DNA from: Escherichia coli
GTDB lineage: Bacteria; Pseudomonadota; Gammaproteobacteria; Enterobacterales; Enterobacteriaceae
Length of the DNA stretch: 64,000 nt
NCBI RefSeq assembly: GCF_003018235.1
Contig: NZ_CP027437.1
Reading direction: 5' to 3' (one strand)
Program-made: the position numbers
Part shown: positions 3,001-6,000 of the stretch, in pieces
Position numbering within the stretch: the stretch's first letter is position 1
Layout of the letters: every line of letters starts with the position of its first letter

Positions 3001-6000
3001 TTGCCGCATAATCCACCACATAACGCATCGAATTGCGCGCGGCGAAGCACCCATCCTCCGGGGCCGAAACCACTACCCTGACGATGCAGCGTTAACAGTT
3101 CGCCGCTTTCCGTCATCAGGTTAATCGCCCGTCGCCACACTCCCGCTAACCGCCAGGACTGGCAATAATTCGGTGCGCTACGGCTGGCAAGCAGAGGATG
3201 GATGATCGTCATTGCGCGATCCTCAACCAATCCCCATGCTTTCAGCCAGTGCTTCCAGCGCCTGTTCAAAGCACGCCAGCGGTGCCCGCACAGTGCCTGC
3301 GCCAATCTGCCCGATCCCCGCCTCTTTATGGGCGATACCGGTATTGATGAGTGGCGTAATGCCGGTTTCTACCACGCGACGAATGTCCAGTCCCAGGCAC
3401 GCGCCCTGAAAATCCCAGCTTGGGATCTGCAACTGCATATTGCGTTCAAGGAAGATTTCCGCCATCTCTTCAGATACAGCTCTGGCCGCTTCCATGCCAC
3501 CCGCACCGACAAAGCGCGTTACGCCAGGCGCTGCGATCATTGCCGCTCCGCCAATACCAAAGGTTTCGGTAATTGCGCTATCGCCCATATCCGGGTTCGC
3601 CTGCTCCTGCGAGAAGCCGGTGAAAAACAGACCTTGCGGAGTGTTTACAGGCGCAGTAAACCAGCGTTCACCCAGCCCGCTTACCCGAATCCCGAACATA
3701 TTGCCGTTGCGGGTCATAGCCGTAACGATGCTGCCTGCGCGGATCATCGCGCCAGCATCCATCGCCGCCTTGCAGTAGGCCATCGCGAGGTTGAGGAAGA
3801 ACTGATCGGTCACGTTGAGGAAATCCATCACTTCCGCAATGTGCTGTTTATCATGATCGAGGCGAGCAATTTGTGGGGCCAGCGCACGCATTAACAGTGC
3901 AGAGGAAGCAATGTTGCGTTGATGGAACTCATCGCCCATGGTAATGCCCTGCGCCATCATCGCCGTGAGATCGATACCGCGCTCCATGCGCCCCAGCGCC
4001 GCGCTTAATACTGGCATTAACACATCGCGCATCCAGCGATGGCGAGTCAGGACATCTTCGCCGTAAGCGCCAAAACGCATCACTTTGCCGATACCTTCGT
4101 TGAGGTTGCAGTACGCCCGGTTGCCGTCGGTCACGTTCTCGACCACCAGCATCGGCATACTGGCAGAAGTAATGCCGCCCATTGGCCCGACGGCATTCAC
4201 ATGGTGACAAGGAATGAAGTTCACTTCCCCCTGATCCAGCATTGCCAGCGCCTGCGCTTCATCTTTCGCCCAGCCTTCAAACAGACATGCGCCCACACAT
4301 GCCCCTTTCATGGGTCCGGTCATCTCCTGCCAGCGCATTGGCGGCCCGGCGTGAAGCAGTGTTTTGCCCTCGTTTAGTTCGCTGATAAGTGAAGAAGCCG
4401 GTTGCACATCCAGCCAGTGTGGACGAGCACGACGAATTTGTTCGATAACCGCAGCATTGGCTTGCGCCACTGATGTAAACATGGGAACCCCTTATTGCAA
4501 ACGTTCTAATAAACGAGCCAGTTTTTTATTGCCGCCGGCGACTGGCGACCATTGGTAATGCACAACCGGTTTGCTGGCGCTTTGTAGCGCCAGCGCAAAG
4601 CTGCGTAATCCGATGTTAATCACGGCGACGTTTTCCAGTAATGACGGTGTGTGTTGCTGTGTGGCAGGCGAGAGCGGATGAATTAACGCTGCCGCCAGCA
4701 AGGTGGCTTCCGGCAGCGAACTCACGACCGCGATCCCCGCATCTTCCAGCGTGGCGATTTGTTGCGAGCGGCATTGCGGGTCACGTTCGGTGCCTGTCAC
4801 CGTGGCAATGGCATACAGTGGTTGATTGTCTGGACGCGCGGCACAGGCTTTTTGCCAGGCGCTCACCAGCGAGGCGGCAGGATCGGCAGTCGCACCGAAG
4901 CCAATCACGACATCAAGCAGCAACACGCGCACTTGCGGTTTAGCGCCGAGATCGGCAATTAACAGGTTGCGTAAGGTCGGGTCGATCATCGGATGGGGAC
5001 GCCCGACGGTGTAAAAATCATCGCCCAGGTCGAGGATCTGATGTCCGTCGGCGTCGAGCATCATGCCATGTTGATGGGTATCGTCGGCTTCCACGCCAAG
5101 GTGTCCGGCAAGTAATCCCGCCGCTTCAGCAGCCAGCGTACCGCCGGTATACAAACCGCAAATAAATCCGCTGCTGACAGGTGCTATTGCGTTACGTCGC
5201 GCCGTGACGCGTGAAAGCAGGCAAGCCAGGCGTGCGGCCTCATCAAGCGAGGAGGCAAACCAGACATTCTCGTCGCGGGCCACCGCCGGGGTATAACCTA
5301 AAAACAGCGCCACCGTCGGTTTGCCAGTTGCTTTCATGGCATTAACAATTTTCAGACGCACAGCTTCGGCAGGTGGTTTTGAAACAAATGCCAGCACTTC
5401 GCTTTTCTCGTCGGCGCTTAACATTTCCAGCGCCGTTAGCGCACTGATGCCGCCCACTTCAAGGCTGAGGTCGCGCCCGCCAAGACCAATCGCGTGGGTA
5501 ATTCCCTCACCTGCCAGCGCAATCTGTGAGCACAGCTCCTGAATCCCGGTACCGGAAGCGCCAATGACGCCAATGTTGCCTTCCGGCATCACGTTAGCAA
5601 AAGCCAGCGGCGTGCCGGCAATCATCGACGTACCGCAGTCCGGCCCCATCACCAGCAAGCCTTTTTCCCGCGCGCGGGTTTTAAGTTGGATTTCATCTTC
5701 CAGCGTGACGTTATCGGAGAACATCATCACGTTGAGGTTGCGATCCAGCGCCTGATTCGCCAGCTCCGCCGCATACTCGCCAGCCACTGAAATCAGCGCC
5801 AGACTGGCGTCGGGTAATTTCTGACAGGCACTGTCCCAGCGACGCACCTGCGTCAACGCCTGGCTGCTGCCTGACCCCTGCGCCAGTTGTTTTAGCGCCT
5901 CTTCAAGCTGCTGCATAATCGCCTGCGCGATCCCCGCATCCGCCGCTTCGCTACGAATTGCCACGCAAATATCGTTCGGCGTGGCGTTATTAAAATCGTC

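Follow-up and report, generated by a model that had tools for sequence, protein, structure and literature searches.

The stretch analysed here, referred to as the window, comprises 64,000 nucleotides of Escherichia coli contig NZ_CP027437.1 (assembly GCF_003018235.1) and contains the operon allF-allG-allH-allK, the genes of which are also known as fdrA, ylbE, ylbF and ybcF. As judged from the ORF layout and from annotated homologous regions, it is oriented divergently from allD (Table 1), and the control region between allD and allF is reported to be regulated by AllS and ArcA (PMC12535856). In K-12, the corresponding genes code for an oxamic transcarbamylase (AllFGH) and a catabolic carbamate kinase (AllK), whose functional context within the allantoin/oxamate pathway has been described (PMC11326118, PMC9843812, PMC12535856). 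The two operons share the same gene order and the same synteny beside divergent allD and purK, and the Pfam domains AllG, AllH, AA_kinase and HMA_AllF_N/CoA_binding are assigned to proteins that are identical or nearly identical to those of the window, with a few amino acid polymorphisms in AllF and AllG relative to K-12. Unlike the K-12 operon, that of the window carries a premature stop codon (Q81*) in allK, and the fourth activity of the set is therefore predicted to be missing. Both ylbE and ylbF are nucleotide-identical to the genes of the intact E. coli strain C4, all other ORFs of the allantoin (ALL) cluster in the window are of full length, and a single insertion sequence, a member of the IS110 family, is present in the 64 kb.

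Table 1. Genes and sequence features of the allFGHK region in the window.
Feature	Coordinates	Strand	Basis
ybcF (allK), catabolic carbamate kinase; pseudogene of unchanged length (894 nt), interrupted by one premature amber codon	1507..2400	-	Translation; alignment with K-12 and MEW copies
CTAGG, former Dcm site CCAGG; C>T at 2160 (gene nt 241) gives TAG at 2160-2158 (Q81*)	2157..2161	-	Sequence reading; enumeration of Dcm sites; wild-type twins
ylbF (allH), intact, 271 aa	2397..3212	-	Coordinates as annotated CDS in strain MEW; nucleotide-identical to strain C4
ylbE (allG), intact CDS of 419 codons; oxamic transcarbamylase subunit, Pfam PF06545 AllG/DUF1116	3223..4482	-	ORF list and translation
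G5 homopolymer, ylbE nt 252-256, site of the legacy K-12 'frameshift'; intact G5 in the window	4227..4231	-	Sequence reading; alignment of MG1655, W3110, window and L008
fdrA (allF), intact, 555 aa; opens the allFGHK operon	4492..6159	-	ORF list; annotation of homologous region; operon definition in PMC12535856
Divergent allD-allF control region	6160..6475	.	Position between fdrA and allD

The YlbE protein of the window differs from that of K-12 MG1655 in 4 of 419 residues (I81M, E83D, S223N and Y344F); exactly this protein is widespread in public assemblies, where it is annotated as PF06545:AllG. As judged from its sequence, AllG of the window is of full length and closely orthologous to the K-12 enzyme subunit that has been characterised experimentally, and the 99% identity to the characterised protein suggests that the AllFGH complex of this strain would likewise possess oxamic transcarbamylase activity. 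The first-pass annotation had read ylbE as a clean ORF of 419 codons, which agrees with the ORF list and the translation, and had described the MG1655 copy as a frameshifted pseudogene, which does not hold for the current record: NC_000913.3 contains an intact CDS of 1260 nt (b4572, YP_009029994.1) that translates cleanly. The gene is also functional in MG1655, as oxamate is no longer produced when allG is deleted, and the AllFGH complex proved active when cloned from the DNA of this strain (PMC11326118). Older versions of the MG1655 reference did carry a ylbE frameshift (PMC5460176, PMC4404585, PMC4759930, PMC3045373), and the W3110 record NC_007779.1 still has the gene flagged as 'frameshifted'. 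An alignment of the MG1655, W3110, window and L008 copies traces the legacy 'frameshift' to a difference in run length from G5 to G4; the window shares the gene and the G run with the legacy K-12 'pseudogene' but has G5, as does NC_000913.3, whereas W3110 and the old MG1655 reference have G4. The exact G4 allele occurs in just 4 of 5,417 complete genomes, namely W3110 and three MG1655-derived assemblies with the coordinates of the old reference, and the extra G is present in resequenced MG1655 stocks (PMC4404585, PMC4759930, PMC5460176). The 'pseudogene' goes back to a homopolymer length carried over from old reference records, so that it should not serve as evidence for pathway decay. The ylbE gene of the window is a normal intact gene, a state shared by nearly all E. 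coli, the current K-12 MG1655 among them, and the stale K-12 lore on this gene, now called allG, should be corrected accordingly.

The lesion itself had been assigned to the neighbouring ybcF, and this proved correct. Translation of the gene runs into a single in-frame amber codon (CAG to TAG) at codon 81, ahead of the regular stop at codon 298; the reading frame is thereby divided into ORFs of 80 and 215 aa, and no uninterrupted AllK ORF of about 297 aa (YbcF; PF00696, AA_kinase) is present in the window. Compared with K-12, the gene shows, besides Q81*, the K260/M262 allele, which is common to the wild-type strain MEW, while all other differences are synonymous; compared with strain C4, it differs only by Q81* and one synonymous site. 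A scan of the 64-kb window for an amber suppressor was empty, no tRNA genes being located within it.

The predicted product of 80 aa would be devoid of most of the amino-acid-kinase fold, so that AllK could not turn the carbamoyl phosphate arising from oxalurate cleavage into ATP, NH3 and CO2 any more. Given the terminal position of allK in the operon, AllFGH should be expressed as usual; the oxamate branch is then expected to keep working, its carbamoyl phosphate being diverted to biosynthesis. Such a diversion would fit the near-absent phenotype reported for a ybcF deletion, which had no measurable effect with allantoin in the laboratory (PMC9843812). The practical effect on the strain is expected to be modest, probably amounting to the loss of one ATP per allantoin degraded via the oxamate branch.

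A view on the sequence context of the stop codon shows that wild-type ybcF alleles read GCCAGGG and carriers GCTAGGG, the mutated base being the inner C of a CCWGG motif and the change a C-to-T transition. An enumeration of the Dcm sites in ybcF identified the one at codon 81 as the only site that can generate a stop codon in this way. Dcm is conserved in most E. coli strains (dcm and vsr themselves lie outside the window), and amber hotspots at Dcm sites of lacI were reportedly recognized by Coulondre and Miller in 1978. The process behind these classic hotspots has probably operated here as well: Dcm would methylate the inner cytosine of CCAGG, the resulting 5-methylcytosine would deaminate to thymine, and the T:G mismatch would sometimes escape very-short-patch repair by Vsr. 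In lacI, amber hotspots located at the second C of this motif, CCAGG, are over-represented about 10-fold (PMC12606429), and Vsr repairs CTWGG/CCWGG mismatches (PMC2715241). Q81* of ybcF corresponds to the lacI hotspots in motif, affected base and outcome (second C of CCAGG to T, CAG to TAG) as well as in its independent recurrence. Unlike the laboratory mutant collection of lacI, it occurs in natural isolates.

The same TAG codon is found on eight distinct ybcF haplotypes, which are 14-59 nt apart. For four of these haplotypes, wild-type twins exist that differ only at nt 241 (L020/L004, L007/NZ_CP023820, L012/NZ_CP128970 and L013/NZ_CP025903), and the four twins differ from each other by 22-33 sites. 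Q81* therefore had at least four independent origins. None of these TAG alleles shows secondary changes relative to its twin. One further carrier of the same codon (L017) contains a second amber codon in ylbF, W181*, located at another Dcm site (CCTGG to CCTAG). Q81* was recorded on about 160 contigs; exact matches to the TAG allele were absent from about 5,420 complete genomes for the four haplotypes tested, and a 39-mer of the TAG allele had no exact match among the GTDB species-representative genomes. Recurrence is not exclusive to the Dcm site, because the nonsense allele Q54* (GCCGCAGG), which is not at a Dcm site, recurs on at least three haplotypes and 158 contigs, and weak selection on allK probably contributes to the recurrence of nonsense alleles. 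When contigs with predicted N-terminal truncation products were counted for stop-capable Dcm and non-Dcm sites, the Dcm sites yielded 168, 113, 47, 45 and 138 contigs, compared to a median of about 40 at 13 control sites (one-sided Mann-Whitney p=0.015), an excess that is suggestive only, since many entries are 'partial' proteins cut at contig ends or come from clonal lineages. The chosen ylbF truncation fragments were absent from the collection, probably as a result of the choice of allele. The clusters of YbcF homologues mix full-length and truncated proteins, and their member counts refer to distinct sequences, not genomes.

Given its position, sequence context, type of change and recurrence on independent haplotypes, the ybcF lesion is likely to represent a C-to-T change at a Dcm hotspot, which is young, rare and near mutation-selection balance in an otherwise conserved pathway, and not a sign of pathway decay. 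The first-pass annotation had instead noted that different strains appear to carry different inactivating lesions in the same four-gene pathway, suggesting that selection on this branch is relaxed; on a reading of this kind, the four genes would be dispensable in many niches. Its descriptive part stands insofar as sporadic lesions do differ among strains, whereas its K-12 ylbE example is obsolete. Apart from the W181* codon of ylbF mentioned above, a 34-bp frameshift in fdrA of KMi025 and a 32-bp frameshift in ybcF of MLI104K2 were found, and Q54* of strain 203740 is flagged as an 'internal stop' in ybcF by PGAP. In the Q54* lineage, frameshifts in allE and allD and an IS1-associated deletion are layered on top of the identical ybcF haplotype. 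Two Shigella-like loci carrying Q81* (L014 and L016) contain IS1 elements and lack segments of allD-fdrA-ylbE and hyi-allE that were lost; the 80-aa ybcF product has been named from Shigella flexneri 6603-63. This erosion by IS-mediated deletions and point pseudogenes, as known from Shigella and host-restricted E. coli, is thus seen in some Q81* carriers, but not in the window with its single IS and otherwise full-length ALL cluster; for these reasons, a Shigella identity of the window, which the name of the 80-aa product might suggest, was not adopted. The additional 'lesions' in ylbE, allC and allE of locus L008 were rejected as assembly noise, all of them being single-base homopolymer deletions relative to the near-identical sister L007. 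The missing laboratory phenotype of the ybcF deletion (PMC9843812) would also be compatible with decay. However, of 5,426 complete genomes, 5,407 (99.6%) possess the operon in structurally complete form, and sporadic lesions other than Q81* are rare: among about 58 genomes sampled evenly, just 2 have one or more of the four genes hit by an indel. Gene listings of the complete genomes show pseudogenes like any other gene (e.g., ylbE of W3110). The long-term dN/dS values are low (ybcF 0.030, ylbE 0.055, ylbF 0.119 and fdrA 0.091, compared to 0.052 for purK), that of ybcF being the lowest of the eight genes tested. The identity of ylbE and ylbF in the window to those of the intact strain C4 and the lack of secondary changes in the TAG alleles likewise speak against decay. 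Relaxed selection on this branch is therefore not supported, and ongoing decay seems an unlikely background for the lesion in the window, which is better explained by the mutational hotspot.

Still less probable is an adaptive benefit of losing allK in certain niches, e.g., by saving carbamoyl phosphate for arginine and pyrimidine synthesis; knock-outs would then be selected time and again, with the Dcm site merely offering the easiest route. Such a benefit would account for independent nonsense alleles at two codons, with Q81* on at least four and up to eight backgrounds and Q54* on at least three, each reaching about 160 contigs, and would be in line with the preferential use of carbamoyl phosphate for biosynthesis argued for in PMC9843812. 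However, the alleles are very rare and located at the tips, as exemplified by the absence of all four tested TAG haplotypes from the complete genomes, and ybcF is under very strong long-term purifying selection. Codon 81 of allK might nevertheless be pictured, with little confidence, as a natural 'soft spot', a Dcm-methylated CAG codon by which the ATP-yielding carbamate kinase step is repeatedly switched off, the resulting knock-outs being transiently favoured in particular hosts, for instance by keeping carbamoyl phosphate for biosynthesis, and not merely tolerated. If true, this would represent a population-level case in which a core metabolic gene loses its function repeatedly and in a methylation-directed manner.

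A single origin of the TAG codon, followed by its transfer from lineage to lineage through homologous recombination of a short tract, appears very improbable. E. coli does recombine, and the window too has a mosaic structure: its operon is 99.6% identical to that of strain C4, but no complete genome exceeds 98.5% identity to the flanking 9 kb. However, four carriers are exactly one substitution away from four different wild-type haplotypes, and the nearest flanking polymorphisms among the carriers, at nt 225 and nt 267, would limit a common tract to less than about 40 bp in every single transfer. Moreover, Vsr repair of a heteroduplex T:G at a Dcm motif favours restoration of the C, which disfavours the transfer of T. 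A sequencing or assembly error in ybcF is hardly credible at all, even with two other homopolymer-length frameshifts in the window (in siiEA and in a TolC-family gene) that make assembly noise conceivable, as the lesion is a substitution and not a homopolymer indel, the independent Logan assembly SRR8930575 matches the window at 100% over 10.7 kb including the TAG, and the same codon is present in GCA_902841295.1 as well as in over 20 further assemblies (NCBI, ENA and Logan).

Taken as a Dcm-hotspot mutation, Q81* of ybcF would provide an example from natural populations of the textbook amber hotspot at 5-methylcytosine, the same nonsense codon having arisen at least four times, on different backgrounds, although purifying selection on the gene is otherwise strong. 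It also illustrates that identical recurrent lesions can come from mutation bias, and not from relaxed or positive selection.

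The first 21,500 nucleotides of the window comprise the purEK region and the allantoin (ALL) cluster of E. coli, including the genes fdrA-ylbE-ylbF-ybcF, which are now named the allFGHK operon. AllFGH constitute an oxamic transcarbamylase converting oxalurate to oxamate and carbamoyl phosphate, AllK is a catabolic carbamate kinase generating ATP, NH3, and CO2 from carbamoyl phosphate and ADP, and, in anaerobic conditions with allantoin, AllS and ArcA activate the operon (PMC11326118, PMC9843812, PMC12535856). As the first-pass annotation had noted, ybcF is lesioned: the gene has its normal length, but codon 81 is an in-frame TAG (Q81*, stop at 2160-2158) caused by a C>T change at window position 2160 (gene nt 241). 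Its remaining differences from K-12 are all synonymous, except for a K260/M262 allele shared with the wild-type strain MEW. Full-length ORFs are present for all other genes of the ALL cluster (glxK, ybbY, allB, allW, glxR, hyi, gcl, allR, allA, allS, allD, allC, and allE).

Features of the window discussed in the text
Feature	Position	Strand	Remarks
fdrA (allF)	4492-6159	minus	555 aa
ylbE (allG)	3223-4482	minus	419 aa
ylbF (allH)	2397-3212	minus	271 aa
ybcF (allK)	1507-2400	minus	
allD, allC, allE		plus	divergent, next to fdrA-ylbE-ylbF-ybcF
IS110-family transposase ORF	23387-24367	minus	326 aa
600-aa ORF	33827-35629	plus	C-terminal YadA-like membrane anchor
HlyD-like gene	36745-37920		type I secretion locus; looks intact
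ABC transporter gene	37917-40079		type I secretion locus; looks intact
siiEA	40083-61753	minus	giant BapA-related adhesin; split into a 341-aa BapA_N ORF (60728-61753) and a 6,892-aa ORF (40083-60761)
TolC-family outer-membrane gene	61862-63218	minus	also in the type I secretion locus; broken into ORFs of 307 and 196 aa

Outside the ALL cluster, two further genes are split. Compared with isolate AF39, siiEA (its RefSeq name; the gene is present in 958 of 5,426 complete genomes) lacks one base of a C-run near 60778 (C4>C3), which could reflect a genuine frameshift or a homopolymer error in the assembly. The TolC-family gene, a single 451-aa CDS in AF39, has gained one base in a T-run near 62377 (T6>T7). 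The 600-aa ORF is a candidate trimeric autotransporter adhesin. Among ten window ORFs searched against Pfam, the IS110-family ORF is the sole transposase, which speaks against a Shigella-like genome rich in IS elements. The best complete-genome matches of segments 1-9000 and 9001-34000 reach just 98.5% (MEW, VCSW7), and that of the allFGHK segment 99.6% (strain C4, its nearest complete-genome relative). Window 1-34000 is thus mosaic relative to complete E. coli genomes, suggesting recombination and a lineage that few complete genomes represent.

The wild-type sequence around ybcF codon 81, AGC-CAG-GGG, contains the Dcm site CCAGG, whose inner C has been changed to yield CTAGG. A scan of all CCWGG sites identified this as the only one in ybcF at which deamination creates a stop. 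In motif, base, and outcome, Q81* is like the amber hotspots of lacI, from which the 5-methylcytosine deamination model originated (PMC12606429); the T:G mismatch arising from such a deamination is what Vsr very-short-patch repair acts on (PMC2715241).

Searched against about 5,420 complete E. coli genomes of RefSeq, the TAG allele gave no exact match. An exact-sequence look-up in the wider public collection found the 80-aa product on 168 contigs (one entry taking its name from Shigella flexneri 6603-63) and a 215-aa product, whose ORF begins two codons past the stop and misses the N-terminal part of the enzyme, on 29; the Logan assembly SRR8930575 matches the window at 100% over 10.7 kb. Among the ybcF genes extracted from homologous loci retrieved from public assemblies (L-numbers), the identical TAG occurs on eight distinct haplotypes differing at 14-59 of 894 sites, the nearest polymorphisms among carriers lying at nt 225 and nt 267. 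A single origin of the TAG followed by spread through recombination is very unlikely, as four of these haplotypes are each one base away from a separate wild-type twin, differing at nt 241 alone (L020/L004, L007/NZ_CP023820, L012/NZ_CP128970, and L013/NZ_CP025903). Since the four twins are 22-33 sites apart from one another, at least four independent C>T events are required. Compared with their twins, the TAG alleles have acquired no further substitutions and are therefore young.

Similar events are seen elsewhere in the operon. One Q81* carrier, L017 (GCA_965255605.1), has a second amber, W181* (CCTGG>CCTAG), in its ylbF (9189-10004) at a Dcm site predicted by the scan, and its sister L012 shares the ybcF haplotype with ylbF intact. 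Upstream of allC, L017 contains phage genes (TerL) where allE/glxK would stand. In the protein listing, four different 135-aa FdrA fragments (on 15, 13, 13, and 6 contigs) end exactly where a Dcm-site Q136* (CCAGG) would terminate them; these protein fragments suggest another recurrent Dcm amber in fdrA. The Dcm hotspot alone does not entirely account for the ybcF nonsense alleles, however: the product of the non-Dcm control Q54* (GCCGCAGG) is found on 158 contigs and at least three haplotypes, and the allele occurs in the complete genome NZ_CP025913.1, flagged by PGAP for an internal stop. Contig counts of predicted truncation products are 168, 113, 47, 45, and 138 for Dcm sites versus a median of about 40 for 13 controls (one-sided Mann-Whitney, p=0.015), an excess which is only suggestive because clonal entries and "partial" proteins cut at contig ends are numerous. 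In one Q54* lineage, an identical ybcF haplotype is accompanied by frameshifts in allE only (L026) or in allE and allD (L022, L027), or by an IS1-associated deletion that runs from gcl into fdrA (L023), a pattern resembling step-by-step erosion of the allantoin cluster after a first ybcF lesion.

The ylbE gene is indeed uninterrupted in the window, translating cleanly into a protein with four residue differences from that of K-12 MG1655. The proposed contrast to a frameshifted K-12 pseudogene does not hold, as NC_000913.3 contains an intact 1260-nt CDS (b4572) with a clean translation, and allG does function in MG1655: without it no oxamate is formed, and AllFGH cloned from DNA of this strain is enzymatically active (PMC11326118). 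A "frameshifted" flag persists in the W3110 record NC_007779.1. Relative to MG1655, this copy has a silent substitution at nt 114, and the G5 run at nt 252-256 is one base short (G4). The same two differences separate the old MG1655 reference from real MG1655 stocks, the extra G "restoring" the ORF (PMC4404585, PMC5460176, PMC4759930, PMC3045373). An 80-nt probe matched the G4 allele exactly in only 4 of 5,417 complete genomes, namely W3110 and the MG1655-derived essential-oil strains CAR, LIM, and CIT (NZ_CP026026-28). In these three, its coordinate matches that in W3110 and the old reference, which may reflect reference-guided assembly rather than lend the allele independent support. Other K-12 genomes (MG1655 CP032667, C600, and ER1709) have G5, as does the window, and the contrast thus rests on outdated annotation; ylbE is normally intact. 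The window's exact YlbE allele also occurs, together with a wild-type ybcF, in L003 (GCA_027274845.1), whose allC is frameshifted (1,237 nt, +1).

That different strains carry different lesions is correct for Q81*, Q54*, ylbF W181*, the fdrA and ybcF frameshifts, and the IS1-associated deletion, but not for the K-12 ylbE example. The relaxed selection proposed from this pattern is not borne out for the species or for this branch, as judged from operon completeness, low dN/dS, the young TAG alleles, and the identity to C4. The operon is present in one piece, at 80% of its length or more, in 5,407 of 5,426 complete genomes. Among 60 genomes spaced evenly down the match ranking, 56 have exactly 4,653 nt without indels, two carry indel lesions (a 34-bp frameshift in fdrA of KMi025 and a 32-bp frameshift in ybcF of MLI104K2), one shows loss or divergence over the initial 79 nt of fdrA, and one lacks nearly the whole operon. 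Among the haplotypes gathered here, pairwise dN/dS is lowest of eight genes for ybcF (0.030), with 0.055 for ylbE, 0.091 for fdrA, and 0.119 for ylbF, compared to 0.052 for purK and 0.036-0.048 for allC, allD, and allE. The window and C4 are nucleotide-identical in ylbE and ylbF and differ in ybcF by Q81* and one synonymous site.

The predicted 80-residue AllK product would lack most of the amino-acid-kinase fold, and no tRNA genes, as possible amber suppressors, lie within the 64-kb window. Polarity on allFGH is not expected, given the terminal position of allK in the operon. The strain should retain the conversion of allantoin to oxamate but forgo the ATP otherwise obtained from carbamoyl phosphate. 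Weak selection on allK is probably what allows nonsense alleles to be sampled, which fits the report that a ybcF deletion hardly alters allantoin degradation, carbamoyl phosphate going to biosynthesis instead (PMC9843812). The ybcF lesion, a young, rare, recurrent amber at a probable Dcm hotspot, lies in a conserved operon with a weakly needed last step and represents a fresh example of a well-known type of event.
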